NCBI GenBank assembly: GCA_037446635.1
Contig: JBBIIG010000066.1
Location: 1-20,802 of the forward strand
Source of the DNA: a bacterium
Lineage (GTDB): Bacteria; Zhuqueibacterota; Zhuqueibacteria; Oceanimicrobiales; Oceanimicrobiaceae
DNA: 20,802 bases
Direction of reading: 5' to 3'
Each line of letters begins with the position of its first letter. Within the stretch, counting starts at the first letter, position 1. Below are positions 4,340-20,802 of the stretch, one piece after another. The translations under genes were made by a program, and so were the position numbers. The notes below the pieces were generated by a model that saw only the letters and a list, made by a program, of their open reading frames with translations, searched no databases and was not told the DNA's origin.

Positions 4340-6721
4340 TTACTTCAAAGCCTCCAGCAGCCGTTTTGAAGTGGTTTCTTTTGAGGTGGGGATGAGTTTT
4401 TTAAGCTCAGCGGAAAACTCCTGAATGGTGTTGTGGCGGTGGTTGGGCGCTTTGGCCAAGGCTTTGGCTAAAATGTCGTCGAGCGCCTGCGGGATGTCGG
4501 CGCGGAATTGCGAGGCGCGCACTGCTTCGTCCGCGAGGATTTTGACGCGCACCTCGCGGGCGTTTTTGCCGCGGAAGGGGTGCACGCCCGTGAGGCTTTC
4601 GTATAACATCACTCCTAATTGAAAAATGTCGCACGCGGGCGTGAGCGTCAGCCCTTGAATTTGTTCCGGCGCGCTGTAAGCCTGCGAGTTGATATCGTCG
4701 TTCCAGACTTTCTCGGTGTGCCGCACTTGCAGCAAACCGCTGTCCGCCAACTTGATCTCCCCCTGGCCGGAAATGAAAATGTTGTCCGGTTTCAAATTTT
4801 TATGCCAGAGGTGACCTTCATGATGGATCGCGAGGATTTTGCAAATTTCGCGGTAGTACTCAATGGTTTTGATGATATCTGGCAAGCCGTCTCGCAACAA
4901 ATATTTGTTGAGCGTCTCCCCCTCGATGAACTCACGCACTAGATATAAAATATCGCCTTCTTCGCCGGCGTCGTAAATCACCGTAATGTTCGGGTGGTTG
5001 ATGCGGTTGAGTTTTCGCACCTCCTCATAAAACTGTTTGCGCAGCGACGAGAAATCTTTGAAGCCGGCAAACGCCTGCGCGCGGTAGGCTTTGATCACCA
5101 CCACCCGCTCCAACTGCGGATCGTAACCCTTGAAGGTCGAGTAGAGCTGGATTTCTTTGATGGGCTTCACCACCTCATATTTGCCGAACTTTTGCGGCCG
5201 CGGCGCGCTCAGACGCTCACCGATTTCTTTCACTTCATTTTTCGCTTCTTTCAACGAAATGGTAAAGATTTTATGGAGGTGTGGAAATTGCCGTAAACGG
5301 TATTCGCCTAACCGCTGGGCGCGATAACTGGTGATCGCGCTGGCGACGGATTCGGTGAGCAGCAGCGGCAGGGCGTCAGGTTGGGAAATCCATTCGCCCG
5401 CGAGCTGCGCCGGCAACCCATGCACCTTGAAGGCTTTGCGCAGCTCCTTGAGGCTGGTCTTTTCGAGGTTGACGAACGGCACCAGGCTGCAATGCAGGGT
5501 GACGCGGAGCTGGATTTTTTCCGAGTTCTCCACGACCCGGTTGTAGCGTTCCAGGCGCTGCAGGATGGCCACCGCGGCGCGCAGCAACTTATCGGGATCG
5601 CAGTTGAACGTTAAGACGCCGTTTTGCGCGCGGCAGGCGAAAATATCATTGACGCGGTTGAATTCCGCCGCAATGAAATTTAAAAACGACGCAAACGGCA
5701 GCTTCGATGATTCGGCGTCCTCATCGAAATTGGCGATTTCAAAAATCCCCAGCGTGTTGCTGCGATTCAAAATTTGCGCGAGCGCCGGCGCGGCGTCGAG
5801 TTTTGCGCCGCTATCGACTTTCTGAATGAAGTCGCGGTAGAAGTCAAACGTTGAGTCGATGTCCACCGCCGCGGCGTGGTTATCGGAGTCTTTGTCCCTT
5901 TTGACCGGCGATTTTTCTAAAATGAAGAATTCATACTCGTCGTTGCCCGGAAGTTTTGGACGGGCAGGCGGTTTAAAATTCAAAAACAGATTTTTGAGAT
6001 CGAGATACGTTTCGATGTCGGCGATTCGTTGAATCGGCTCGTCGAAATTTTTGTACTGCAAGATCAGGCGGATGTCGTTGGCGCTGTTTTCAAAGGCGGC
6101 GCCGTTTTCTTCGCACCAGGCTTTTTTTTCAAGCTGGGTTTCGTAAAACGCCCTCAAGTAAATCGGGTTCTCCCGCGAGTGCTTGTACAAATCTTTCACC
6201 ACCTGCAGCGCGTCGTCGAATTTGCCGCTGCGCCAGGCGGTGTTGAGATAGAGCGCCAGCAGCTCCGGATTTTCGCCGCACTCCAAAAGAGTTTGCCGCA
6301 GTTCGGAAAGCGAGAGCGTGTCGGTTGATTCGCGAAAGATTTTTTCCAGCGCCGTACGAATTTGATCTTCGAATGGCGGAGCAAATTTCAGGGCGCGGCG
6401 AAAAATTTGCAGAGCCGGATCGGCGAAAAGATTTTTTTTCAAAAACAGCGTCGCCAGGGTGAGGATGAGGCTTTGGTTGTTTTCATTGGCGTCGGCCGCC
6501 ATTTTATAAATGGTAAATGCCTCTTCCGAGCTGGCTTCGCTGCGCGCCAGCGCCAAAGCAAAATAAGTGATCACCTCCGTATCCTCAACGCCGTTTTGCA
6601 ACAGTTGCCGGAATTTTTCCGCGGCGCGCTGATTCTCGCCGTTTTCTAAATAGGCGCGCCCTAGCGCTTTTAACAAATCGATCACTTCCGCATCATAGCG
6701 TTGTTCTGCAGCGGCGGTCAT
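4340..6721 (-). CDS. TPR + degenerate class III nucleotide-cyclase-like domain + Ser/Thr pseudokinase
   Basis: N-terminal TPR-like helices. Middle (~5255-5760) follows the cyclase fold pattern (GIFEIANF / QNGVLTF / AAVAILQRL..YN / LRVTLH / LLLTESVA / LGEYRLR). C-terminal Hanks kinase fold (VVIK, HPNITVIYDAG, HKNLKPDNI, DSG, YSAPEQ, DIFQLG) with substituted catalytic residues. Confidence 0.85.
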   Translation of the reverse strand: MTAAAEQRYDAEVIDLLKALGRAYLENGENQRAAEKFRQLLQNGVEDTEVITYFALALARSEASSEEAFTIYKMAADANENNQSLILTLATLFLKKNLFADPALQIFRRALKFAPPFEDQIRTALEKIFRESTDTLSLSELRQTLLECGENPELLALYLNTAWRSGKFDDALQVVKDLYKHSRENPIYLRAFYETQLEKKAWCEENGAAFENSANDIRLILQYKNFDEPIQRIADIETYLDLKNLFLNFKPPARPKLPGNDEYEFFILEKSPVKRDKDSDNHAAAVDIDSTFDFYRDFIQKVDSGAKLDAAPALAQILNRSNTLGIFEIANFDEDAESSKLPFASFLNFIAAEFNRVNDIFACRAQNGVLTFNCDPDKLLRAAVAILQRLERYNRVVENSEKIQLRVTLHCSLVPFVNLEKTSLKELRKAFKVHGLPAQLAGEWISQPDALPLLLTESVASAITSYRAQRLGEYRLRQFPHLHKIFTISLKEAKNEVKEIGERLSAPRPQKFGKYEVVKPIKEIQLYSTFKGYDPQLERVVVIKAYRAQAFAGFKDFSSLRKQFYEEVRKLNRINHPNITVIYDAGEEGDILYLVREFIEGETLNKYLLRDGLPDIIKTIEYYREICKILAIHHEGHLWHKNLKPDNIFISGQGEIKLADSGLLQVRHTEKVWNDDINSQAYSAPEQIQGLTLTPACDIFQLGVMLYESLTGVHPFRGKNAREVRVKILADEAVRASQFRADIPQALDDILAKALAKAPNHRHNTIQEFSAELKKLIPTSKETTSKRLLEALK

Positions 6722-8475
6722 GACGACACCCTCATTTTTCTCATCTTCGTGTCCAGTTCTTTTTCGAGGATGTGAATCGCGCTCATATCGGTGCGCCCCT
6801 GGTTCAAGTAGTGAGTAGCGAGGATGGAGTTGATGGCTTCGCGCTTGTTCGTCAGAATGTTCAACCGCAGAATGGTTTCATACACTTTCAGCGCCCGCTC
6901 ATCGCGGCGATTTTGAAGCAAATAAATGTTGGCCAGCACCGGGTAGAGTTTAATTTTTCCGGGATGTTTCTCCAGCATTTTTTCGTAGAGCGCCGCCGCG
7001 CGATCGTATTTGCCCTGCAGCAGAAAAATCCGCGCGCGCGTTATCGGTGAAAAAACCATGACGCCAACGAGCGGCAGGATCAGCAGGGCTGCCGCGGCGC
7101 CGGCTAACGTCGTCATGCTCAGCGGCAGCGCCGGCGAAGCCGGCGCCACCGGCGCGCGGCTGGTCTTGTTCAAATTGAAGTGGGCGTCTGCCAGTTTGTT
7201 TTTGAGATCGCGATAATCCGGCGCGACGGCAGCGATTTTTTCAAACGCCTGCGCCGCCCGCCGCCACTCGCCGTTTTGCAGCGCCAGCTCGCCCTCGGTG
7301 TACAGAGCGGCGATCTCCTGCTGCGTTTGCTGTGCGAGTGAATCGCGCGCGCTTTTCAGCAAGGCCTGCGCGTCGCGATAATTGGGAGCGATGCTGGTCA
7401 AGCGATCGAAACTGGCCAGCGCCAGCGACCAGTTTCCCTCCTGCAAATAAGATAAGCCCTCCTGATAGAGCGGTTCATGAAGATCCGGCTCCGCCCTCGG
7501 CGTTGGAGTTGGAGGGTCGTTTGCCGGCGGAGTTTCCTCGCGCACGCGCCGGCCGTTCGTTGCATTTGGAGTGTTCGTTGTTTCGACTCGGCGGGCCTGG
7601 CGCTGCGCTTGCAGTTCCTGCAACTGCAGTTGCGCGTCTTTGAAATTGGGATCGACGCGCACGATTTCATCGAAGAGGTTGATGGCTTCGGCGGTTTCGC
7701 CGCTTTGCGCTTTGGCGACGGCCTGCGAGTAGAGCGCGGCCAGACGTTTCGTTTGCTTGCTGCGCTGCGCCAGACGGATTGCCTCTTCCAATTGGCTGGC
7801 CGAATCTTTAAAATGGCGATCGCTTTGCACCACTTCCTTCAGCAGCGCCGCGGCGTCGTCGTAGCGTTCGGCGCGCATCATGCGCAGGCTTTCGTTGTAC
7901 TTGTCGTCGAGAATTTTTTTGCTTTCGGCGAGCGCGAGGGCGTCGTCAAAAAGTTTGGCGTTTTGCGGCAGCAGCGCCTTGCCTTCGCGGAACTCGGCCA
8001 GGGCGCCAGTGATGTTGCCCTCCTTCAGATAAAGCTGGCCGAGGTCATAACAAATTCGGCCTTTGGCGCTGGCGGCGGTGGCGAGCCCCTTGGCGCCGGA
8101 GAGCGCTTCTTTGGCCTTATCGTTTTTGTCTAATTGTTGATAGATGGCGCCCAACTCGTACAGGATGCGAGTTTTGATGTCGTTGTTCAGAGCATAAGGA
8201 TTTTTGAAGTAGGCTTTGTTCAGCGTAATTTCCGCTTCCTGAAAGCGTCCGGCCGCCTTATACGCTAGGCCGAGATAATAGTAGGCCTCGGTGTAGTTGG
8301 GGTCTAATTGAATCGCCTGTTCGAACGCGCGGATTTTGGCGTCTACCGGTGCGGCGTCGAGACCGGCTTTGACCCAATCGGCGGCGCGGGTTTGGCTTTG
8401 GGATTCGTGGGGGGCAACCAATAGCAGGGACAAAGTCAGAATAGTCCATCTAATTTTGCGTCGTAAGCTCATCAT
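6718..8475 (-). CDS. Membrane-anchored TPR repeat protein (signal peptide, extracytoplasmic TPRs, TM helix, cytoplasmic TPRs)
   Basis: Signal peptide MMSLRRKIRWTILTLSLLLVAPHESQS; canonical TPR (AIQLDPNYTEAYYYLGLAY); four related repeats ending in a PxY/FxD-like motif; TM LAGAAAALLILPLVGVMVF; three further TPR-like repeats. Confidence 0.9.
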   Translation of the reverse strand: MMSLRRKIRWTILTLSLLLVAPHESQSQTRAADWVKAGLDAAPVDAKIRAFEQAIQLDPNYTEAYYYLGLAYKAAGRFQEAEITLNKAYFKNPYALNNDIKTRILYELGAIYQQLDKNDKAKEALSGAKGLATAASAKGRICYDLGQLYLKEGNITGALAEFREGKALLPQNAKLFDDALALAESKKILDDKYNESLRMMRAERYDDAAALLKEVVQSDRHFKDSASQLEEAIRLAQRSKQTKRLAALYSQAVAKAQSGETAEAINLFDEIVRVDPNFKDAQLQLQELQAQRQARRVETTNTPNATNGRRVREETPPANDPPTPTPRAEPDLHEPLYQEGLSYLQEGNWSLALASFDRLTSIAPNYRDAQALLKSARDSLAQQTQQEIAALYTEGELALQNGEWRRAAQAFEKIAAVAPDYRDLKNKLADAHFNLNKTSRAPVAPASPALPLSMTTLAGAAAALLILPLVGVMVFSPITRARIFLLQGKYDRAAALYEKMLEKHPGKIKLYPVLANIYLLQNRRDERALKVYETILRLNILTNKREAINSILATHYLNQGRTDMSAIHILEKELDTKMRKMRVSS

Positions 8476-8505
8476 TCCTGAACGAGTTTTATCTGGCTGG
8501 TCATT

Positions 8506-10995
8506 CTACGATCTTTGATTTGCTTTAATGATTCGCTCGCGCCTTTTTCGGCTGATTGAAATTACTGCGATCGCGCCCAAAAAAAGCACGCTGGATATAG
8601 ATAAAGTAACGTCATAAACCTTTGATTGCGGTTGCACGAATTCGTAACGGCACGAATTGCGTTCGTTGCCAAACGCCTGCCCCCAAATGACGCTGTTTTT
8701 GGCGATGCTGGAATTGGTTTGAATTTTATAAACGTTTAGATCGCGGCGAATGAGAAAAACGTTGAGATAACCGTCGCTGCCGACGTCGCCGGCCAGCGCC
8801 GCGGAGACAGCAGGATTATCCGGTTTTTTGATTTCATAAAGAATTTTGCCGTCGCGGCCGTTGACGATGGCCGCGACGCCGTTGCTGAGCGAGACGACGA
8901 GATCGTGGACGCCGTCTTTGTTGAAATCGACCGGAGTCAGCGGCGCTGCGATCTCATTCAAACCAAAATCGGTTTGCCACAAGGCGATTTTGCGGTTTTG
9001 CGGATCCGCGGAGCCTTTGATGACTTTCACGAAGTGGCGGGAAGCGAGCGCCACGTCTTCCAGTTCGTCGTCGTCAAATTTCCCGGCCGCCGGCGCCGCC
9101 CAGGCGCCCGCGCCTTCCGGCTCGATTTGCTCGTGCCAGAGCCGGCTGAAGCTGCCGCCTTCCAGCGCCAGGTACCAGCCATTGGCGCCGCCCACTACTA
9201 AATCCAGAGCGCCGTTGCCGTTCAAGTCGGCGATCGCCGCTGGTTGGCGAATTTCAAAATTGCTGATGGGCGAGCCGGTGGCTTTGCTCAATTCTTCTTT
9301 TAGATCCAAAACTTTGGTGACGCCGCTGCCCTCGAGCACGATGAGCTGGCCTTCTTCGCTGCCGATGAAAACTTCGCTGCGGCCGTCGCCGTTGCCGTCC
9401 ACTGCCGACGGCGCGCTCAGAATTTTCACGCCGCTGTCGATGGTTTTCCAATCCATCTCGTTGACGTAGGCGATGCCAATATGGATTTGGCCGGCCGCGG
9501 TGCACACCACCACGTCTCGCAAGCCGTCGCCGTTCAAGTCCGCGGCGACCGGTGCTCCGGAGATGGTTTCGCCTAAAATTGGGCTGAGCCAAATTTCGGC
9601 GCCGTTGACGCCATCGAGAGCGCGCAGCCGGGAATCGCGGCCAACCACCAGCACATCCAACTGGCCGTTGGCGTTGAGATCGACCAAAACGATGGGGATG
9701 GCGTTTTGAACCCCAATCTGTTCATTCATCCAGAGAATTTTTTTGGAGACGCCATCGATCGCGATCAGATTTTGCTGGTGATCGGTGAAGATCACGTCTG
9801 GCTTGCCGTCGCCGTTCAAATCGCCTAACGCGAGGCTGGAGCGCAGGCCTGCGCCGGCAGGCAGGTTGGCGTTTGCACTTGGCGCTGGGCTGCCTGCCTG
9901 TGACTTGCGGTCGCCCTGGTACCAGGTTTCTTCGATGAATTTCAGCTCGCCCGGTTTTTTGTTGGCGGCCAGGCGATTCATGCTGCCAAGCCCGAGCGCG
10001 CCGACGGCGAGCAGTCCGGTCGCAATCGTGAGCAGAGTTCCCAGGCGATGGGCGTTGCGCATCCACCACACGCCGGCTTTACGCGGCGGCGAGAAGTCCG
10101 GATTGGCTGCGGAGGTAAGCCGGAAGATTGTGCTCTTCTGGTCGCTGACAATTTCGATTTCATCTCCTTCTTCGATGGGGATTTCATCGTCCGTGCTTAA
10201 TTTGATTTGGTTGACGTACGTGCGGGTTTTGCTGCGTTTGTCGGTGATGTAAAAGCGGCCGTTTTTGCAGGAGATGGTGGCGTGCCGGCGCGAGATGCTG
10301 GGATCCAGCGCGCCTTTGTCGTTCACGCGGATGACGATATCGTTCAGCGAATTGTCGCGGCCGATGCGGGTGTCGCCCTCATTCAACGAAAAAGTTTTTC
10401 CGGTGTAGGGGCCGTAGATGGCAGTCAGCTGATATGAGGTCGCGGCGCTGTTTTTCCCAACCAGCGAGGGTTTGGGTTCCGCTTGCGGCGGCGTTTGCAG
10501 ATCGTCCGGCGTTGGCTCGGTCTCAAAATATTCCTCCGCGTCAGGGCCGTCAACCTTGGCGGCGGGCGGCCCGTCATTCACGGCGACCTCGCCGGCAGAG
10601 GAAAGGGAGAACGCGCTGTTGATAAATTTTTTATCTAAATAATCCTCGTCGATGACTTCGATTTCGTCGCCGGCAGAGCTCAGGCTCGCCGGTTCGCGGG
10701 TGTGATTCACGAACAACATGCTGAGCTCGCCGACGGCGATTTCGTCGCCCTGCACCATTTGCACGCGCTTCAAAAGCGGGCGGCCGTTAATGATAGCGCC
10801 GAGTTCGTTTTCAAGCGTTTCCAGGTAGTAGTTGCCATTGGAGTACTCTATTTTTAGATGGCGAGCGGAGACCGATTTTTCCGCGAGCACGAGGTCGTTT
10901 TCGGGATGCGAGCCCAGGGTAAATTGCGCCCGCCCGGGTTCCAGCTCGAAAACGTTCACCAGTTCGGCTTTTCTTTTTACAATCAATTTTGCCAT
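8506..10995 (-). CDS. Tandem FHA domains + TM + FG-GAP/PQQ-like beta-propeller + C-terminal TM
   Basis: FHA1 (LGSHPENDLVL..SVSARH), FHA2 (IGRD...SISRRHATI...TYVN); TM LGTLLTIATGLLAVGALGLG; eight DxNxDG-like repeats; second TM followed by RKRRER. Confidence 0.9.
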   Translation of the reverse strand: MAKLIVKRKAELVNVFELEPGRAQFTLGSHPENDLVLAEKSVSARHLKIEYSNGNYYLETLENELGAIINGRPLLKRVQMVQGDEIAVGELSMLFVNHTREPASLSSAGDEIEVIDEDYLDKKFINSAFSLSSAGEVAVNDGPPAAKVDGPDAEEYFETEPTPDDLQTPPQAEPKPSLVGKNSAATSYQLTAIYGPYTGKTFSLNEGDTRIGRDNSLNDIVIRVNDKGALDPSISRRHATISCKNGRFYITDKRSKTRTYVNQIKLSTDDEIPIEEGDEIEIVSDQKSTIFRLTSAANPDFSPPRKAGVWWMRNAHRLGTLLTIATGLLAVGALGLGSMNRLAANKKPGELKFIEETWYQGDRKSQAGSPAPSANANLPAGAGLRSSLALGDLNGDGKPDVIFTDHQQNLIAIDGVSKKILWMNEQIGVQNAIPIVLVDLNANGQLDVLVVGRDSRLRALDGVNGAEIWLSPILGETISGAPVAADLNGDGLRDVVVCTAAGQIHIGIAYVNEMDWKTIDSGVKILSAPSAVDGNGDGRSEVFIGSEEGQLIVLEGSGVTKVLDLKEELSKATGSPISNFEIRQPAAIADLNGNGALDLVVGGANGWYLALEGGSFSRLWHEQIEPEGAGAWAAPAAGKFDDDELEDVALASRHFVKVIKGSADPQNRKIALWQTDFGLNEIAAPLTPVDFNKDGVHDLVVSLSNGVAAIVNGRDGKILYEIKKPDNPAVSAALAGDVGSDGYLNVFLIRRDLNVYKIQTNSSIAKNSVIWGQAFGNERNSCRYEFVQPQSKVYDVTLSISSVLFLGAIAVISISRKRRERIIKANQRS

Positions 10996-11006
10996 GGCTG
11001 TTTCCG

Positions 11007-13583: not shown

Positions 13584-13592
13584 GATTTTACC

Positions 13593-14768
13593 TTATTTGC
13601 TTCGATACAAAAGTTCTACGCGCGGCCGTCCGTCCGTGGCGCGGAACAGTCGTGGAAAATAGGGTGGAGTTTGAGCGCGCAGCCGATCATCGTAAACATG
13701 AGTTAAGTTGTAACCCAAGCCCAATACACTAAATTCCTCGCCGTTCCTCTGCCCGATAGATCCCAAAATGGTCAACGTTTTGATGGGCAGCGAGCTTCTA
13801 TATGGTACGCGCACATATTCTCTGGCTAAGAGCGCGCCGTGAATCTCCAAATCGGTATTTTTGTTGATGATGATATCGTTCTGCGCAACCAGGCCCAGCA
13901 AATCGGTAGAAGTGGGATCGACGCGGGGATCGGTGAGATAGCGAATGTCGCCTTCGATGTACAGGTTTTCGTCGCTTAAGACGGTGAACTGGCCGGTGAA
14001 GGTTCCTTCTACGTGAAGATGTTTGTCATTGGTGGTTCGAACCCCCTGGTAATCCGCCACATTGTTGGTGTGTTCAATTGTTGCGGTTGAGCAGGCAAAG
14101 GTGCCGTCGCCGTTGAACATAACCCACAATTCCTGGTTATGCACGTGGCCAAAGGCAGACAGCGAATCTTCCAGGCCAGTTAGGGAAGGATAAGGGACGA
14201 AGGAACAGCCGAATTCTGCTCCGCCAAAAAATTGCGGCGAGGCGCTGACCACGACAGTGTAAGATGAATTAGTGGAAGATACTTTTCCGAGGAACACCGG
14301 GCTGCCGCTGATCCGAATGCTTTGATTAGAATGAATGGGCGCGGGAATGGTGTCGCCGGTTACAAAGGTCTTCCAAGTCGGCCAGTCGCGGGAGAGATAG
14401 TAGTAGTATGAATACGCCGGCTGCATCAACTCGACGATGGTGGTGTCGCTTTCCTTGCCAAATGTGGAGACTGCCGTAACTCTTATCCGCTTGGCCTGGG
14501 TAGCGGAATCGGCGGTGACCTTGGCCACACTCGTGGAGTAGGTTGCGCCGTTGAAGCTGCCGCTGAGCGTTCCTAAATTATTGAAATCCTGAATTAGTCG
14601 TGAAGCCGCCACGTTGGCGACGCTCTCGGCAGCGTTTTGCGCCATCCACTTTTCGTACTGAATCGCAATCGCATCCGTGGAGCGCGATTGGTTGGCGGAG
14701 AGGTTAAACATCACCACGCTAAAAATGGTCGAGAAACCAACGACGATAATCATCAATGCTTTTCCCAT
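13593..14768 (-). CDS. PilX/GspK-like large minor pilin
   Basis: N-terminal hydrophobic helix then AQNAAESVANVA (PilX-like AxxxAESG pattern); beta-rich C-terminus (LHVEG, LYIEGDIRY, LGLVAQNDI, YDDRL..TPPYFP). ATG at 14768 preferred over TTG at 14774. Confidence 0.7.
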   Translation of the reverse strand: MGKALMIIVVGFSTIFSVVMFNLSANQSRSTDAIAIQYEKWMAQNAAESVANVAASRLIQDFNNLGTLSGSFNGATYSTSVAKVTADSATQAKRIRVTAVSTFGKESDTTIVELMQPAYSYYYYLSRDWPTWKTFVTGDTIPAPIHSNQSIRISGSPVFLGKVSSTNSSYTVVVSASPQFFGGAEFGCSFVPYPSLTGLEDSLSAFGHVHNQELWVMFNGDGTFACSTATIEHTNNVADYQGVRTTNDKHLHVEGTFTGQFTVLSDENLYIEGDIRYLTDPRVDPTSTDLLGLVAQNDIIINKNTDLEIHGALLAREYVRVPYRSSLPIKTLTILGSIGQRNGEEFSVLGLGYNLTHVYDDRLRAQTPPYFPRLFRATDGRPRVELLYRSK

Positions 14769-14779
14769 TTTCAAACGCC

Positions 14780-15358
14780 CTAAAGATTGGTGTTCGGAAT
14801 ACGATACAGGCTTTTGGGAGTCATCCGTTTTTCCCAGATGGCGCGGGCGTAGCTGCCATCATATTGAATGGTACTTTCAACCGTGAGCAAAACGTGTGTC
14901 ATATGCACGTTCATTACGTTTGTGGTTGTGCCGCCGGTGCGATTGAGCAATGTTAGTCGAAATCTCCGCACCCCCGCCGGCTCGCCGATGGTGGTATCGG
15001 AGTTGACGATGCGATATAAAATGCGGTCGTTGGGATTTTCCGTGGCGGCAGCCGCAGCGGTGTTGCTGAGGGCATAACGTACGGTTTCAGCAACCCCGTC
15101 GTCATCGATGTCGCCCAAAAAGGTAATAGACGAGGTATCGGCCGCCAGAATCGCCAGCGCCGGCGAGCTCACGCCGCTGCCGATTCGTTGGAAATCATGC
15201 GTGATGATTTCCATGAACGACGCCGCCGTCTCCTGGGCCAGCAATTCAAACATTCTGTTGTGGGAGTAATCCACCACGCCGCCGTGAAACGACAATAGCC
15301 CCAACAGAAAAATGCCGCCAATGACGATGCTGCCAATGAGAGTAAGGTTCGAGTCCAT
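14780..15358 (-). CDS. PilW/GspJ-like minor pilin
   Basis: Hydrophobic N-terminal helix, IITHDFQRIG (PilW-like DLRxAG), SITFLGDIDDDGVAETVRY, LYR; middle gene of a three-gene cassette after the secretin. Confidence 0.7.
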   Translation of the reverse strand: MDSNLTLIGSIVIGGIFLLGLLSFHGGVVDYSHNRMFELLAQETAASFMEIITHDFQRIGSGVSSPALAILAADTSSITFLGDIDDDGVAETVRYALSNTAAAAATENPNDRILYRIVNSDTTIGEPAGVRRFRLTLLNRTGGTTTNVMNVHMTHVLLTVESTIQYDGSYARAIWEKRMTPKSLYRIPNTNL

Positions 15359-15363
15359 AGTTT

Positions 15364-15849
15364 CTAAAGATTCTTTTGAAAAGCAAACACGTAGCGCGCC
15401 ACCACCGGGTTCGTTAAGTAGGGCGTGGTTACCGTTACCTGCATTCTTTTGTAGAATGTCCTAGTGCCAGCGCTGACATCGAGATTGGTGTCAGCCACGT
15501 AAGTGAAGGCAATGTTGACAGTCATATTGCCCAGGTCCGAGACGAACGTAGTTGGCGCCTCCACGAAGTCATCCACGTCATCAAAGTTTGGGTAGGCTTC
15601 AGTTCCATCCGCTTTCAAAGGATTAATAAAAGCCGTTGGGCTGGTTACCAGCGTGTTAATGGCCTTTTCGTCAAATTCTTTGGTTTTGGCTTCCTCAATG
15701 AATCGCTGCGCCATGCTCAAGGCATAAAACTCCGCCTGCCGCTGATATACCGCCTCCGTGTTGCGCACGGTGTTCTGGTTAATTGCCAGCGAGGTCATCG
15801 CAAACGCTACAATAGCGCCGAGAGTTAGTAGTAGTTCCTGGTGTCCCAT
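15364..15849 (-). CDS. PilV/MshD-like minor pilin
   Basis: Hydrophobic N-terminal helix, ALSMAQRFIEEAKTKEFDE, FDDVDDF and KRMQVTVT, a pattern seen in MshD/PilV-like proteins. Confidence 0.7.
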   Translation of the reverse strand: MGHQELLLTLGAIVAFAMTSLAINQNTVRNTEAVYQRQAEFYALSMAQRFIEEAKTKEFDEKAINTLVTSPTAFINPLKADGTEAYPNFDDVDDFVEAPTTFVSDLGNMTVNIAFTYVADTNLDVSAGTRTFYKRMQVTVTTPYLTNPVVARYVFAFQKNL

Positions 15850-15863
15850 GGCATTACTGTTAT

Positions 15864-15892
15864 GTGCCAGGCACTTTTAAAGTGCCTGGCAC
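15864..15892. repeat. Perfect 14-bp inverted repeat (REP-like hairpin)
   Basis: GTGCCAGGCACTTT-T-AAAGTGCCTGGCAC; each arm contains the interrupted palindrome GTGCC(A/T)GGCAC. Confidence 0.85.
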
Positions 15893-15920
15893 GTTTTAGG
15901 GTTTTCAGTTTTTTTTTAAG

Positions 15921-15979
15921 ACCCCACCCTTCCGCGAAGCGGATCCGGTTTGGCGGAAACCCTCTTCTGCAAGAGAGAG
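15921..15979. repeat. REP-like element interrupted by a double hairpin
   Basis: ACCCCACCCT [TCCGC-GAA-GCGGA TCCG-GTTTGG-CGGA, 15931-15957] AACCCTCTT-CTGC-AAGAGAG. Confidence 0.5.
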
Positions 15980-15986
15980 ATTTTTT

Positions 15987-17207
15987 TTACCGCCGCCGGG
16001 TCGCTGCGCCGCTCGGCGCCCGGCCGTTGGCGCTGTTAGCGGTTTTGAGCTGACGCAGTTTGCGCATGAATTCCAACCGCTTCTGCTCGATGAGATTTCT
16101 TTGTCCCTGGCGCATGGCCACGCGCTCGGCAATCGTCGGCACCACGGAGGCCTGCAAAATGATGATCAACTCCTTTTTCTTGGCCTGCTTGAAGTTGTAT
16201 CCAAACAGGTAGCGCAGCCCGAAAAACCACGGCGGCAAATCTTTCAAAACCGGGATGCCGCGGCGGCCCTCGACCATTTCGTTCGAGAACAGGCCAGCGA
16301 TCACGGTTTCTTCGCCGTTCAGCAGCAGCACTTGGGTGCGGCTTTCGGTGATGTTTTTGGTGGTATTCACAGCGTCCGGAAAGACCGTGCTGCGTTCGGC
16401 CAAAATATCTAAATGAACAAACAGCGAGTCGCCAGCGCCAATCACCTGCGGCGTGACCGTCAGGATGACCCCGGCCTCGTATTCGGTGAATCGCAAGTTG
16501 CCGGCGAAATCCTGGGTGGTGAGAAAAAAGTTGGTGCCGACTTTAATTTTTCCTTCCTGGCCGTCCAAGACTTTGATTTGCGGATTGGCGAGCACCTCGC
16601 CTTTGTCCATGGTTTCGAAAGTTCGCAGCAGACCGAAGATGTCCCACATGCGGAAGCGATCGTTGATGCGCACCGAAAATAGATCGCGCGTCACCTGGCT
16701 GCCGAAATTTCCTAACACTCTTACCCGCCCATTATCGATGCGCCAATCGACGCCGGCCTCGAGCAGCGTGCCGTAATCGGCGTCGAAGAACACGGCGTTG
16801 ATTTCGACTTCCCTGCTGCCGGTGGTGATGAGCTCGGCGGGGCTGCTGCTCTCCGAAGATTTGGTGAGCGGCACCACCTCGTAATATTTTTCACGCTCCT
16901 CGAATTTCATGAGATTGGAACGCAGAATGTATTCCAGCGCCCGCCGCCAGTGCATGTTGTTGACCATGACGTTGATGTTGCCCTTGGCCACGCCCGCCGG
17001 ATCGATAATGAGCTTGTTTTCGTGCCGCATGCTGTATTGGCTTAAAATATCAAGCGCTGTTTTCATGGACAAGCTGCGATCGAGACTGATCAACTCATCT
17101 GGTTTAACCTCGCGCGGATAGTCTTCCTGGCCAAACGATTCGCGTCCTATGCCCATGAAACATGCCACAGTCCAAAAAATTGCAAATGCTTTCAATTGGT
17201 ACGTCAT
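15987..17207 (-). CDS. Short secretin (PilQ/GspD superfamily)
   Basis: Signal peptide; N0/STN-like domain (NINVMVNNMHWRRALEYIL); secretin core (EVEINAVFFD, VLANPQIKVLDGQEGKIKVG, AGVILTVTPQV, NGEETVIAGL, GIPVLKDLP..LRYLFG, KKELIIILQA); AAGGA upstream. Confidence 0.92.
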   Translation of the reverse strand: MTYQLKAFAIFWTVACFMGIGRESFGQEDYPREVKPDELISLDRSLSMKTALDILSQYSMRHENKLIIDPAGVAKGNINVMVNNMHWRRALEYILRSNLMKFEEREKYYEVVPLTKSSESSSPAELITTGSREVEINAVFFDADYGTLLEAGVDWRIDNGRVRVLGNFGSQVTRDLFSVRINDRFRMWDIFGLLRTFETMDKGEVLANPQIKVLDGQEGKIKVGTNFFLTTQDFAGNLRFTEYEAGVILTVTPQVIGAGDSLFVHLDILAERSTVFPDAVNTTKNITESRTQVLLLNGEETVIAGLFSNEMVEGRRGIPVLKDLPPWFFGLRYLFGYNFKQAKKKELIIILQASVVPTIAERVAMRQGQRNLIEQKRLEFMRKLRQLKTANSANGRAPSGAATRRR

Positions 17208-17218
17208 TGAATTTTCCT

Positions 17219-18121
17219 TTATTTGCTCTCATCGATTCTGAGAGTGATTCTCTGGCTGACTCCGAATTTGGTGATGATGAATTCTGCCTCGTTGCGATCC
17301 TGATTGATGCTCACCAAACGCCCCAAATAGACCGGCTCGCCGATTTTGAGCTGCACCGGCGGCCCGCCGGCTTCGGAAATGAAGATCGAGTTGCTGGCCA
17401 CCGCTTTCAACGTGGCGCGCTCGACATCGATTTGGCCGGGGAGTTTTGCCGGCAGCTTCGGCGCTTCCGGCTTCGGCGCCGCCACGACCACCGGCCGCGG
17501 CTTCACCAACGGCTCAAAGAAATTTCGCGTAAACCCATAATTGTAGTTGCGGGTGGGCCGCAGCGAAGTAAAATCGTCCAAAATTTCCGTTTGGCTGTCC
17601 ACGGTGTAACCTTCAAGTGTCATAACAAATTTAAGATAGTTGTTATCCGCCGAACTTGGCGACAAAGTCAGCGAATTTATTTTGTACAGAATCGGTTCGT
17701 AGGTCAAATGCCAAATCATTTTGTAGATGTCGGCGTACGGGCCTTCGCCGGTGAGGCTGTAGGTGAAAAGCGTATGATCGCCGCTTTTTTTCTTGTTGTT
17801 GAGCACGAAGTCGAAATCGATGGCCAAATTGTTGGACGACATGATCCAGTTGAGGTACGACAGCGTGAACGACGGCTCATCGGCGGAGATGATCATTTTC
17901 GGCGCCTCCTGCCATTTGCGCCGCATCTGTTCGTGAACGGTTTCCACTTGCGTCAGCCGTTTGATCTCTTCCTGTGATTTGGACAACAGCTCCCGTAGGG
18001 TCTTTTCTTCGCCGGCGGCTTTCACCAGGTTGCGGGCATCTTTGACGTACCAAAAAATGCCGACGACCAGCAGCACCATCCAGAAGCCGAAAAGCGTAAG
18101 ACTGTTTCGTTTCGCAAACAT
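17219..18121 (-). CDS. PilO-like protein with C-terminal PilP-like beta domain
   Basis: N-terminal TM and coiled coil; PilO/GspM pattern YSLTGEGPYADIYKMIWHL...KINSLTL; then RNFFEP, a Pro-rich linker and LKAV..SIFI..G...LKIGE...GRLVSI (PilP/GspC-HR-like). Confidence 0.75.
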   Translation of the reverse strand: MFAKRNSLTLFGFWMVLLVVGIFWYVKDARNLVKAAGEEKTLRELLSKSQEEIKRLTQVETVHEQMRRKWQEAPKMIISADEPSFTLSYLNWIMSSNNLAIDFDFVLNNKKKSGDHTLFTYSLTGEGPYADIYKMIWHLTYEPILYKINSLTLSPSSADNNYLKFVMTLEGYTVDSQTEILDDFTSLRPTRNYNYGFTRNFFEPLVKPRPVVVAAPKPEAPKLPAKLPGQIDVERATLKAVASNSIFISEAGGPPVQLKIGEPVYLGRLVSINQDRNEAEFIITKFGVSQRITLRIDESK

Positions 18122-18140
18122 GATTTTTATCTCGCTTTAA

Positions 18141-18295
18141 GGGGCTGTCCAAAAAAAGGGTGAAAAATGTCATTGCCTGCCTGCTGCAGGCAGGCGAAGC
18201 GCTCTTTGCCGAAGCAGTCCCACGTTGAAAAGCGGCAGATCGCTTCGCAAAAAGCGCTCGCGATGACAGAATTTTGCTGCCTTTTGGACAGCCCC
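18141..18295. mobile_element. 155-bp MITE/REPIN-like nested palindromic element
   Basis: Perfect 14-bp terminal inverted repeats GGGGCTGTCCAAAA (18141-18154) / TTTTGGACAGCCCC (18282-18295); inner long imperfect inverted repeat 18168-18268; innermost palindrome 18175-18195. Confidence 0.75.
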
Positions 18296-18311
18296 GGGGT
18301 TAAGTTTCCTT

Positions 18312-20162
18312 TTACCGGCTTAACCGCACCACTTTGTTGGGTTCGCCACCAGCGGCCGGCAGCGCGCCGGCCAGCCGGTTGGCTTCCTGCTCGTTTTCAT
18401 ACGATCCCACAATCACCGCAAACTGCTTGGCATTGAGCGGCGACACTTTTACCGCGTAGCCTTTTTGAAAATATTTTTGCGCCTCGCGATCGGCTGCAGC
18501 CTGCGTTCCAAAGACGCCCACCTGCACGCCGTAGAGCGCCCGCGTGTGAGCGCCGTTGCCGTTGGAGCCATTGCCCGCCAGCAGCGACTGAATGCTCACA
18601 CCCTTAGATTTTTCCGTGGTATCGATGGTCTTTTCCAATTGAAATTCAAAAACCCGGGTGTCGTGCAAATCCGAGCGCGTAACTTTTTTTAAATTTGCGC
18701 CGCCTAACGCGCTGGCCAAGATCGGGATGCGCTCGCGCTCGCGCGCTATGCCGGTGATGGTTACCACGTTGCCCTGTTTGCGGAAGTCGGTCAGCCACAT
18801 TCCTCCGCTGCTGGCGATGGCTTGATTGAGCAAATTCAAGAACTCGATGGTCTCGTCGAAGCCCTTACTGTAGTTATCCACCAGACTGAGCTTTTTTTCG
18901 AGATCGACGATTTGGTTGTCGAATGATTGGATGCGCTCGGTCAGCGACTTGTTGTTTTCGATTTGAGCCTTCATCGTCGCGATCTTGCGTTTGACGTGCC
19001 GCAAGTCGAGATTTTTTGAAACCAGCACCATCGTGAAGCCAAACGCCGTCAGCCCCAACAGCGCCAGCAGCAAGTAACCGTGCAGCGCCAGCTTGGGCAT
19101 TTTGTGGCGCTCCAACAAATATTCCGGCAGCAAGTTGCTTTTGGATTTGACGACGTTTTTCTGCAGCGCTTTCCACGCCAGCGCAATGGCGATGGCGTAG
19201 CGCGAAAACAGCAGCCCGCGATCCTTGAAACGCAGGTTGGATTGGATTTTCCGCGAGTTGAGATAGCCGGTGATGGCGTACGGAAATTTCTGACGAAAAT
19301 AGTATTTCGCCTTCAATTTCGACGAATGCCCGGCCACCAAAATTTTGTTGATCTCAGGAATGAAATAATGATCCTGCGCGAAAATGATGCGGCTGTAAAT
19401 TACTTCCAGAACGTCTTTGGACATGCTGCCTTTGTGGATGATGGGCGTGATGTGATAAATGTTTTTGCCTTTGAGAAAAATCACCCGCGAGAAATCCTGC
19501 TCCACGTAAACGATGGCGGTGATTTCGTCCTTCTTGAATTTGTAAATCTCCCGCACCAAATCCACCAACGCCAGCTCGTTGGTGTCCATCAACACCAGGC
19601 TCATGTTGCCGGCGCGAAATTGGTTGACCTCCTCCACCAGCTCGATGATGGGAGGGTGGTGCTCGTAATCGATCTGCAAAATCTTGCCGTCGCTCACCTC
19701 GAGATAGTTGCTGCGGCGGGCGCCGTCATCGTCGTCTTTGCCCCAGATGTTGATGCGTTCTTTGATTTTCTTTTTGAGATTTTTATCCTGGGCAACCGCG
19801 GCCCCGTCTAAAAAATCGTATTTGACCGTCAGCACCGGCGTGTTCACCGCCACTGAGGTTTTGAGATGCTGGAAGCGATCGACCAGGGAATAGATCAATC
19901 CGATGTTGTTGTCTTTCGGCGATTTTTCCGACGAGACCGTTTGTTCTTCATCGTGCAGCTTGGGCTCGGGGATGTCGAAAGCCTTTTCGAGATCGTTCAA
20001 CGACTCGTGCTTGCTTTCCGGCTGTTGAATGTTTTCCAGCGGCGTGTCTAACTTGGTGGACTCCAGCGCTTCGATGCAGGATTTCCCCCGAACAAGACTC
20101 AAAAACGCGGCGCGAATTTCGTTGCCGTTAACGGCCAGTCCAATGGCGTATTTGGTTTTCAT
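18312..20162 (-). CDS. PilM-PilN fusion with C-terminal SPOR domain
   Basis: PilM-like actin-fold landmarks (AIGLAVNG, AIVYVE, KILVAGH, YAIAIALAWKAL); PilN NLLP motif at 19125-19136; TM, coiled coil, MWLTDF...VTITGIA; SPOR pattern YGVQVGVF...AVIVGSYENEQEA. Confidence 0.8.
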   Translation of the reverse strand: MKTKYAIGLAVNGNEIRAAFLSLVRGKSCIEALESTKLDTPLENIQQPESKHESLNDLEKAFDIPEPKLHDEEQTVSSEKSPKDNNIGLIYSLVDRFQHLKTSVAVNTPVLTVKYDFLDGAAVAQDKNLKKKIKERINIWGKDDDDGARRSNYLEVSDGKILQIDYEHHPPIIELVEEVNQFRAGNMSLVLMDTNELALVDLVREIYKFKKDEITAIVYVEQDFSRVIFLKGKNIYHITPIIHKGSMSKDVLEVIYSRIIFAQDHYFIPEINKILVAGHSSKLKAKYYFRQKFPYAITGYLNSRKIQSNLRFKDRGLLFSRYAIAIALAWKALQKNVVKSKSNLLPEYLLERHKMPKLALHGYLLLALLGLTAFGFTMVLVSKNLDLRHVKRKIATMKAQIENNKSLTERIQSFDNQIVDLEKKLSLVDNYSKGFDETIEFLNLLNQAIASSGGMWLTDFRKQGNVVTITGIARERERIPILASALGGANLKKVTRSDLHDTRVFEFQLEKTIDTTEKSKGVSIQSLLAGNGSNGNGAHTRALYGVQVGVFGTQAAADREAQKYFQKGYAVKVSPLNAKQFAVIVGSYENEQEANRLAGALPAAGGEPNKVVRLSR

Positions 20163-20176
20163 TCCGATGTTGCAGC

Positions 20177-20802
20177 TCAGTAGTTGTATTTAACCAGTTC
20201 TTCAAATCGTTTTTTGTTATTGGCGTTGATATAGGCTTCGAAATAGGAGATGACGTTTTGCGAATACAAGCGCGCCAAATCCTGCTCCATAGTATTCATG
20301 CCTTGATCGCCAGACTGTTGGATGATCTGATAAATTTCGTTGGTGTTGTTGTTGCGAATCGCGGTGCGCACCGACGGGTTGGAGATCAGTACTTCTTTGG
20401 CCAGCACGCGTTTGCCGTCGGTGCTGGGAATTAATTTTTGTGAAATGACGCAGCTCAGCACGTCCGCCAGCCGCGAACGAATGCGATTTTGCTCGTTGGG
20501 GGGAATCTCCCCCAAAATGCGGTCGATGCTCTCCACCGCCGACGAGGTGTGCAGGGTCGAAAAAACTTTGTGGCCGCTGTCCACCACTTCCAACACCGTG
20601 AGGATGGTGTCGGCGTCGCGCATCTCGCCGATGATGATGATATCCGGGTCCTGCCGTAGCGCTTGAATGGTGCCCTCTTTGAAAGAATGGACGTCGCGGC
20701 CCACTTCGCGATGTTTGACGATCGATTTGATCGGCCTGTGAACGTACTCAATGGGGTCGGCGATGGTGACGATGGGCGGCTCCGTGGGGCGGTTGTTGGC
20801 GG
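20177..20802 (-). CDS. pilT: PilT/PilU-family type IV pilus ATPase (5' part outside the window)
   Basis: Frame stays open to the window end: IVTIADPIEYVH..KSIVKHREVGRDVHSF..ALRQDPDIIIIGEMRD (Walker B), GHKVFSTLHT (His box), ISQKLIP, GMNTMEQDL. Confidence 0.9.
   Translation of the reverse strand, partial: ANNRPTEPPIVTIADPIEYVHRPIKSIVKHREVGRDVHSFKEGTIQALRQDPDIIIIGEMRDADTILTVLEVVDSGHKVFSTLHTSSAVESIDRILGEIPPNEQNRIRSRLADVLSCVISQKLIPSTDGKRVLAKEVLISNPSVRTAIRNNNTNEIYQIIQQSGDQGMNTMEQDLARLYSQNVISYFEAYINANNKKRFEELVKYNY

Follow-up and report, generated by a model that had tools for sequence, protein, structure and literature searches.

A type IV pilus-like operon between two paralogous Ser/Thr kinase–FHA–pseudokinase cassettes in one family of KSB1 bacteria

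Introduction

Ser/Thr–FHA control of type IV filaments has precedent, in the archaellum and in the Myxococcus Kil system, and here we set beside these precedents a locus from the bacterial phylum KSB1 (Zhuqueibacterota). The stretch that we call the window is a whole contig of 20,802 nt (JBBIIG010000066.1 of assembly GCA_037446635.1; G000:C66 in our numbering) from the family Oceanimicrobiaceae, and on it the genes of a type IV pilus-like machine run directly into genes for a Ser/Thr kinase, an FHA protein, a TPR protein and a pseudokinase. How did a pilus operon come by such neighbors, and does the one act upon the other? Our preferred answer, to which we give a little less than even weight, is that the operon lies between two paralogous envelope cassettes of a KSB1-wide kind and that in one family the downstream copy has been recruited to the pilus, to act upon it or together with it.

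In the threonine pathway of the Pseudomonas aeruginosa H1 type VI secretion system (T6SS), whose gene names we take to be PpkA, PppA and Fha1, genes for a membrane Hanks kinase, an FHA protein and a PP2C phosphatase lie beside an envelope machine, much as they do here. A contact-triggered FHA cascade is mentioned for the T6SS (PMC8460266). Our locus differs from that pathway in its type IV pilus-like machine, in carrying FHA on a two-transmembrane (two-TM) FG-GAP protein, in its extra TPR receptor and pseudocyclase-pseudokinase, in a cassette that is not confined to the machine, and in its neighbors, which are pil genes, Mla/RsbW-like genes and polA rather than a T6SS cluster. The mycobacterial PknB–FhaA–PstP–MviN system, in which PstP is presumably the phosphatase, is likewise a single envelope circuit that unites an active kinase and an FHA reader with a PP2C and a pseudokinase. 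There, the phosphorylated juxtamembrane segment of PknB is described as binding FhaA (PMC12077195), and phosphorylation of the MviN pseudokinase tail by PknB as recruiting FhaA (PMC12599244). Unlike that circuit, ours has no PASTA domain, a non-RD kinase, a pseudokinase whose fusion partners are TPR and a cyclase fold, not a flippase, and, in the pseudokinase protein, no Thr conserved above 61%.

Type IV filaments supply the other comparisons. In Sulfolobus, the FHA protein ArnA, ArnB, the kinase ArnC and PP2A control a type IV filament (PMC7472852); this network resembles the cassette in joining a Ser/Thr kinase, FHA and a phosphatase to such a filament, and differs in being archaeal, in controlling the synthesis of archaellum components, and in having no trans-envelope FG-GAP, PEGA or TPR receptors. 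The Kil system shares with our locus a type IV filament cluster, FHA proteins and a short secretin, and differs in being of the Tad subtype, with FHA fused to its ATPase KilF, whereas the ATPases here carry none (PMC8460266, in whose main text the word kinase does not occur). SpkA and SpkB of Synechocystis are listed as Ser/Thr kinases that regulate type IV pilus motility, and the available text of that source (PMC7076178) mentions no FHA–PP2C–pseudokinase cassette. Like the type IVa pilus (T4aP) model of TFFscan (Denise et al. 2019), the operon has PilB, PilT, PilC, PilM/N/O and a secretin together, with PilD as a loner; unlike it, the pilins here have no canonical leader, Glu5 or model match, and there is no clear PilP. 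Our literature search, which covered few subscription journals, found no description of this pilus–kinase–FHA–PP2C–pseudokinase combination, and what it returned included a paper on a prophage module; the main text of PMC11683472 makes no mention of pili, pilus or motility, and the available text of PMC12599244 none of cyclase, TPR, KSB1 or pili.

A pilus operon between two cassettes

Gene content, gene order, catalytic state and distribution are what the genomes display directly. Within a larger locus, the window makes up the downstream half. Its 11 minus-strand open reading frames (ORFs) lie across 4340-20800, the first being a truncated pilT and the last a TPR-kinase gene, and are separated in transcription order by 14, 190, 11, 137, 5, 5, 9, 11, 30 and -4 nt (the last an ATGA overlap). 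An earlier note, made from the letters of this DNA, had described a co-directional 11-gene run with short gaps or an ATGA overlap and a last pilin-like gene 9 nt from the kinase, and the ORF coordinates agree. A domain search of the window supported PilT-like, PilN plus SPOR, secretin, kinase plus PEGA, double FHA plus FG-GAP, TPR, and TPR plus kinase assignments. In order of transcription, the genes are as follows.

20177..20800, minus: 3' half of a gene for a PilT-family retraction ATPase (best match TIGR01420; the 5' half is G000:C36 1-660)
18312..20162, minus: PilM–PilN fusion with a C-terminal SPOR domain (Pfam PilN and SPOR; PilM by hhalign, probability 94%; one TM segment at about residues 364-382)
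17219..18121, minus: PilO with a C-terminal extension (PilO match in 10/36 homologs; hhalign to PilO P=1e-4)
15987..17207, minus: short secretin of 406 aa (PF00263, E=1e-26)
15364..15849, minus: minor pilin-like protein, V slot (Met-Gly start; hydrophobic N-terminal helix; found inside pil operons class-wide)
14780..15358, minus: minor pilin-like protein, W slot (no class III leader; assigned by N-terminal helix, homolog N-termini and synteny)
13593..14774, minus: large PilX-like minor pilin (DUF4900 match in 18/37 homologs; synteny)
11007..13583, minus: Hanks-type Ser/Thr kinase with intact catalytic motifs, non-RD (HQD), TM 420-438, periplasmic PEGA and CarboxypepD_reg
8506..10995, minus: FHA protein, ordered FHA1 (Arg lost) and FHA2 (intact), TM, periplasmic FG-GAP propeller, TM
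6718..8475, minus: TPR protein, a periplasmic TPR array, TM 457-475 and a conserved cytoplasmic TPR-like tail of about 110 aa
4340..6721, minus: last gene, cytoplasmic TPR, degenerate class III nucleotide cyclase fold, pseudokinase at about aa 508-781

The adjoining contig C36 contributes pilA-pilC-pilB and the missing 5' half of pilT, and with them a second cassette, this one with PP2C.

G000:C36 936-2762: PilB extension ATPase (best match TIGR02538 at 446 bits, below the cut-off of 676)
G000:C36 2882-4276: PilC platform protein (two T2SSF domains)
L031:4433-4840 (G000:C36): major pilin pilA

The two contigs share pilT, split between them, with an overlap of 45/53 letters. One 6549-nt contig of run X3, from a related strain (depth 23.9), spans both, and in six relatives (G051, G058, G059, G062, G063, G065) both cassettes and the pil genes stand on a single contig. 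The full order is Ser/Thr kinase–FHA–PP2C–short TPR–pseudokinase (copy B), then pilA-pilC-pilB-pilT-pilMN-pilO-secretin-three minor pilins, then Ser/Thr kinase–FHA–TPR–pseudokinase (copy A), which is convergent on polA. Extending the contig, a check that the earlier note had proposed, therefore supplied pilA, pilC, pilB and the rest of pilT next door, with PilD elsewhere in the genome, and the PP2C phosphatase that it would have sought beyond the window is in copy B. A third cassette (copy C, at C13) is unlinked and has no pil neighbors, giving G000 three copies among 24 Hanks-type kinase ORFs. PP2C occurs only in copy B and the full TPR protein only in copy A, a complementary decay which suggests that the two copies work together.

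Catalytic state of the cassette

The kinase keeps its catalytic residues in nearly every homolog (K in 66/67; E, D, N and D each in 67/67) and is non-RD, with Arg in only 2/67. Nineteen residues before the TM segment stands a juxtamembrane Thr, T401, present in 67/67 homologs and followed as TxxD in 66/67, and this T401-x-x-D is where the second, intact FHA domain of the neighboring protein would likely dock. FHA2 keeps its predicted phosphothreonine-binding residues, whose roles we take to be as in other FHA domains (R 72/72, S 72/72, H 69/72), and the Arg of FHA1 remains in only 2/72. The TxxD and intact FHA2 match the logic by which the PknB juxtamembrane segment and FhaA are described as meeting (PMC12077195). 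The FG-GAP propeller gave weak matches to integrin-alpha and lectin propellers. As judged by motifs, an active-type membrane Hanks kinase, a phosphothreonine-competent FHA and a PP2C are all present, the PP2C in the upstream copy only; NF033484 scored 224.7 against a cut-off of 230.

Of the TPR protein, copy B retains just the tail, encoded by a gene of about 130 aa that lies immediately 5' of its pseudokinase. The last gene, by its motifs, encodes a true pseudokinase, as the earlier note had claimed: the catalytic Asp is gone in 50/50 (the HxD position is N in 38, R in 7, K in 3, S in 1 and G in 1) and the Gly-rich loop is absent, with the Lys kept in 47/50 and the DFG-Asp in 50/50. Its middle domain (about aa 319-497, nt 5231-5767; AlphaFold2 model, pLDDT 88.5) has a cyclase fold, matching Ma1120 in Foldseek at E=1.4e-8 and CyaB at VIA Z 15.8 (root-mean-square deviation 3.2, 162 aligned), with ESM Atlas look-alikes at 0.94-0.95 and PF00211 among the families listed for 20 of 31 picked distant profile matches. 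Whole-protein fold searches returned kinases only, a PDB sequence search returned nothing for the cyclase-like domain, and hhalign to the three cyclases of the same genome was weak (P=0.016). The catalytic set of a cyclase, which we take to be two metal-binding Asp, a substrate Lys and N-x-x-x-R, is missing from the alignments (by eye and hhalign). Among 50 homologs, the first metal-Asp position is E in 17, with D outside the six commonest residues; the second is D in 30 and N in the window; and the aligned positions hold no conserved Lys or Asn/Arg. We did not find an earlier description of such a TPR-pseudocyclase-pseudokinase output protein.

Distribution and linkage

The survey took in 167 genomes of the phylum; overall tallies and the f15 figures include the unpublished G158 and G162, which synteny counts, trees and alignments leave out. 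The FHA protein was matched in 72/167 genomes and the secretin in 84/167. By family (f), genomes with the cassette and then with the secretin numbered as follows.

f1: cassette 20/20; secretin 17/20
f3: cassette 1/1; secretin 0/1
f7: cassette 2/19, partial; secretin 11/19
f8: cassette 0/8; secretin 8/8
f9: cassette 0/14; secretin 10/14
f11: cassette 2/2; secretin 1/2
f12: cassette 11/14; secretin 11/14
f13: cassette 5/5; secretin 4/5
f15: cassette 17/19; secretin 19/19

In the family of the window, copy A stands directly after a pil gene in 13 of the 14 genomes with assembled upstream DNA. In the other 7 of the 21, the contig starts inside the cassette (G049, G052, G060), an N gap intervenes (G050), or the copy A FHA gene was not found (G054, G055, G056); a loss of copy A in G050 was considered and rejected, there being a run of N at the site. 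Copy B precedes pilA in 12/12 informative genomes. The gap from pil gene to kinase is 24 nt or less in 8/13, and the link outlasts reordering of the pil genes: in G067 and G068 there is a 1-nt overlap between the kinase and the stop of the secretin, and in G053 the two are 21 nt apart. Recurrence of this synteny, which had been proposed as a check, is seen across many genera of the family and in none of 46 cassette-bearing genomes outside it. With linkage confined to one family, and cassette and pilus spread independently, the cassette would be a general KSB1 envelope phospho-switch that was joined to the pilus once.

A scan of 185,579 species genomes for two conserved peptides, which distant relatives would escape, gave 68 loci with the same cassette neighborhood. 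Receiver-domain-like genes lie between pilB and pilT at 10/33 non-family secretin loci (those of f7, f9 and part of f12), so the operon often carries regulators of its own.

Several neighborhoods deserve record in their own right. The secretin gene is followed at 11 f14/f15 loci (L159:5141-7891 and orthologs) by one for a cytoplasmic-looking WD40 protein of 900-1000 aa that ends in a Cys-rich motif, and in other families, at 19 loci, by a Big_1 Ig-repeat lipoprotein gene. Directly after the locus (L038, L041, L188), G058 and G063 have Wza-like polysaccharide export and GNVR chain-length genes, and in G056 genes of similar size follow. In G137 (L072:14245-20000), a Tad-like cluster that includes a pair of FHA proteins, of which one is FHA plus TPR, converges on a divergent Ser/Thr kinase...FHA-PP2C cassette in a Kil-like arrangement; in G034, of another class (L076:5108-16201), a cassette of this divergent kind precedes genes for a MotA/ExbB-Big_1 protein and two that are ExbD-like.

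History of the cassette

Single cassettes in f11 and f13 adjoin the same flanks as the double locus, the Mla/RsbW-like cluster in 5 genomes and polA in 3, and those of G135 and G137 share both. The older neighbor is an envelope cluster, MlaE/F/D-like with RsbW, STAS and a GAF phosphatase (labels by eye and BLAST); the older downstream flank is in the window.

1576..4296, plus: polA, convergent on copy A (domain match; the same neighbor follows the single cassette in G133, G135 and G137)

Beyond polA, the window starts with an RHS-core-like fragment at the contig end (3-290, plus; by eye, with no Pfam match), followed by a DUF3467 gene (339-677, minus) and a 188-aa ORF without assigned function (779-1345, plus).

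Copies A, B and C form separate supported clades in the kinase and FHA trees, C grouping with f3, f14 and f15. Sisterhood of A and B was left without resolution by FastTree and was not rejected by the approximately unbiased test (p-AU 0.15; 23/67 kinases used). Clades A and B sit on long stems, which suggests an old arrangement. The simplest reading would be duplication at the old locus, a single insertion of the pil operon, and then complementary loss, of PP2C from A and of the periplasmic TPR from B.

The pilus machine and its pilins

Taken together, the gene assignments support a type IV pilus. The full-length PilT ortholog L044 scores 324 bits against TIGR01420, whose cut-off is 319, and most pilus components fall below their equivalog cut-offs. 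There is no separate PilP gene; the C-terminal extension of PilO looks PilP-like by eye, with hhalign to PilP at P=0.22. The prepilin peptidase (PF01478) is at G000:C10, inside a second, canonical T4aP cluster. The traits of a Tad system, namely a Tad-type ATPase bearing FHA at its N-terminus, a TadB/C pair and an Flp pilin, are missing, with PilB, PilT and a single PilC here and no FHA match on the ATPases in domain searches. The type IV pilus-like machine first claimed for the window is borne out by pilA, C, B and T on the adjoining contig and PilD elsewhere. The second, canonical type IVa set (G000:C10 38018-53864, and L032:9115-15682, further along C36) has GFTLIE-type pilins, PilD and a Big_1-type lipoprotein homolog.

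The pilins are atypical. A class III signal (basic leader, then G↓F-x-x-x-E) was not found: leader and Glu5 are missing in about 40 homologs per gene, the leader being two residues long (Met-Gly start) or absent, with the Gly not kept in the V and W slots. The pilins of the window and the major pilin of its genome matched no Pfam or NCBIfam pilin model, and PDB sequence searches gave nothing for the V-slot or X-slot pilin. ESM Atlas look-alikes of the V-slot pilin, found in Ignavibacteriota and Bacteroidota, include an N_methyl cluster at 0.95 (the family being on 11% of members), and this modeled likeness, with synteny, supports the pilin identity; the major pilin has 1655 relatives. Assembly may proceed without prepilin peptidase cleavage. 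The X-slot pilin may resemble Thermus ComZ, a likeness that we draw through DUF4900 and that the PDB sequence search left unconfirmed; ComEC and HHH_3 genes are in the genome, but they are commonplace.

Intergenic repeats and the pilA leader

The two larger gaps are filled by palindromic repeats, as had been claimed, and these turn out to be genome-wide.

18122..18311: repetitive extragenic palindrome (REP)-like repeat (core 46 times in the genome; 46 other letters in its place in run X3)
15850..15986: REP-like palindromic repeat (core 45 times in the genome; replaced in run X3)

As locus-specific regulators they are ruled out, being repeats that occur genome-wide and are missing or replaced in the related strain's contig. 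Promoter-like and terminator-like sites occur at chance level (14 against 9.5+-3.0, and 27 against 30.6+-5.3). The claim that the pil-to-kinase gap leaves no room for a promoter was made on the 9 nt of the window; in 5/13 genomes the gap is 63-150 nt, so that the kinase may have a separate promoter there.

In most genomes pilA has its own leader region of 132-409 nt. Upstream of pilA at L031:4887-4960 (G000:C36, minus), a GC-rich hairpin is followed by GGAGGTG and then by a tract partly complementary to the hairpin loop. The motif lies 79-224 nt before the major pilin in 11/12 family pilA genes, with the hairpin in all 11 leaders; GGAGGTG by itself occurs in 3/16 non-family pilA genes. RNAalifold found no covariation in the leader, and Rfam gave only two sub-threshold chance matches, none of them for it. 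A pseudoknotted RNA element is possible.

Discussion

How might the cassette work? By analogy, its mode is most likely that of the PknB–FhaA–phosphatase–pseudokinase circuit or of the T6SS threonine switch. A cue from the envelope or the surface would be picked up by the periplasmic PEGA, FG-GAP and TPR domains; the non-RD kinase would autophosphorylate T401; FHA2 of the two-TM neighbor would dock on the phosphorylated residue, forming a trans-envelope complex; the TPR-pseudocyclase-pseudokinase, serving as an output scaffold without catalysis, would be held by the cytoplasmic tail of the TPR protein; and resetting of both copies would fall to the PP2C encoded in the upstream one. The complex would then adjust how the pilus is assembled or retracted, or signal the state of the pilus, a step for which gene order is the sole basis and which we regard as plausible.

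A good deal weighs against co-option for the pilus. Pili occur, with no full-length cassette found, in f7 (2/19, partial), f8 (0/8), f9 (0/14) and f10 (0/1); f14 has the cassette in 10/10 genomes and this secretin in 1/10; and G130, 95% complete, has the cassette with neither this secretin nor a PilT match, single absences being weak because G157 has this secretin and no PilT match. Outside the family, a pil gene lies beside the cassette in 0/46 genomes within the DNA retrieved around it (at least 2 kb upstream in 33, downstream in 22, both in 16), the cassette stands at 0/33 secretin loci in 32 genomes, and since all linked genomes are in one family, they amount to one event. Within it, copy A lies away from the pil genes in G064, the pil operon of G056 has no copy A, and the pseudokinase of G068 is an 89-aa remnant. 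Fusions of cassette and Pil domains were not seen, and Pil proteins had no family-specific gain of Thr (2/92 lineage-specific columns vs. 11/136 and 5/92 in controls, a comparison of low power). Sequence-based analysis gave no sign that the cassette phosphorylates or contacts Pil proteins, and TxxD is also a common helix N-cap motif. The earlier note had proposed a phosphorylation-gated apparatus and had named missing linkage in related genomes as a refutation; outside the family this is what the genomes display (0/46), and, cassette and pilus being also distributed independently among families, dedicated pilus gating as the basic function of the cassette is not supported.

Could the genes simply be expressed together? 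A general sensor of envelope or surface state, kept by selection in one transcription unit with pili because both serve the same attached lifestyle, and exerting no direct control, seems to us unlikely, if well worth keeping in mind: it would fit a cassette that is independent of pili in all other families, has an Mla/RsbW-like envelope cluster as its older neighbor, is followed by polysaccharide-export genes in G058 and G063, and shows no Thr co-variation in Pil proteins, and it is strained by the tight coupling (24 nt or less in 8/13) that re-formed after pil reshuffling and by the keeping of both locus ends across many genera. Historical accident, in which duplication of the cassette at the Mla/RsbW–polA locus was followed by one insertion of the pil operon between the copies, and scarcity of rearrangements has since preserved the order, we judge improbable. 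The single cassettes of G135 and G137 with the same two flanks, the A/B sister relation that was not rejected, the loss of copy A parts in G056, G066 and G068, and the separate pilA leader region in most genomes all suit it; yet the long A/B stems bespeak an old arrangement while the flanks of copy C and of other families' cassettes vary widely, and the internal pil order has changed while the link stayed.

That the machine is an apparatus like the type II secretion system (T2SS), with the cassette gating secretion, is very improbable indeed. Its short secretin has GspD as the best NCBIfam match (77 bits vs. 74 for PilQ), its pilins are atypical, and the genome has a second, canonical T4aP set; against this, the operon includes PilM/N/O and a PilT-family ATPase, PilT being described as lost in the T2SS (PMC6668835), and its PilB scores higher as PilB than as GspE (446 vs. 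398 bits). There is also a bolder version of co-option, a long shot in our estimation, in which a retractile pilus of leaderless pilins is wired to twin kinase complexes, and tension or contact would bring juxtamembrane autophosphorylation, FHA docking and release of the pseudocyclase-pseudokinase to pair with the active class III cyclases of the cell, of which this genome has three, or with the pilus ATPases. If true, such a tension-wired, twin-complex pilus would be the Ser/Thr-kinase counterpart of chemosensory surface sensing.

If the cassette does control the pilus, a bacterial pilus of the PilB/PilT type would have a Ser/Thr switch encoded in its own operon, a combination not found in print in the literature searched. 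No isolate was found mentioned, and the in vitro steps are open to purified domains. The cassette would be a phylum-specific, envelope-spanning kinase–FHA–phosphatase switch, and its arrival on both sides of a pilus operon, in a single family, would be a natural experiment in recruiting a general module to a machine.

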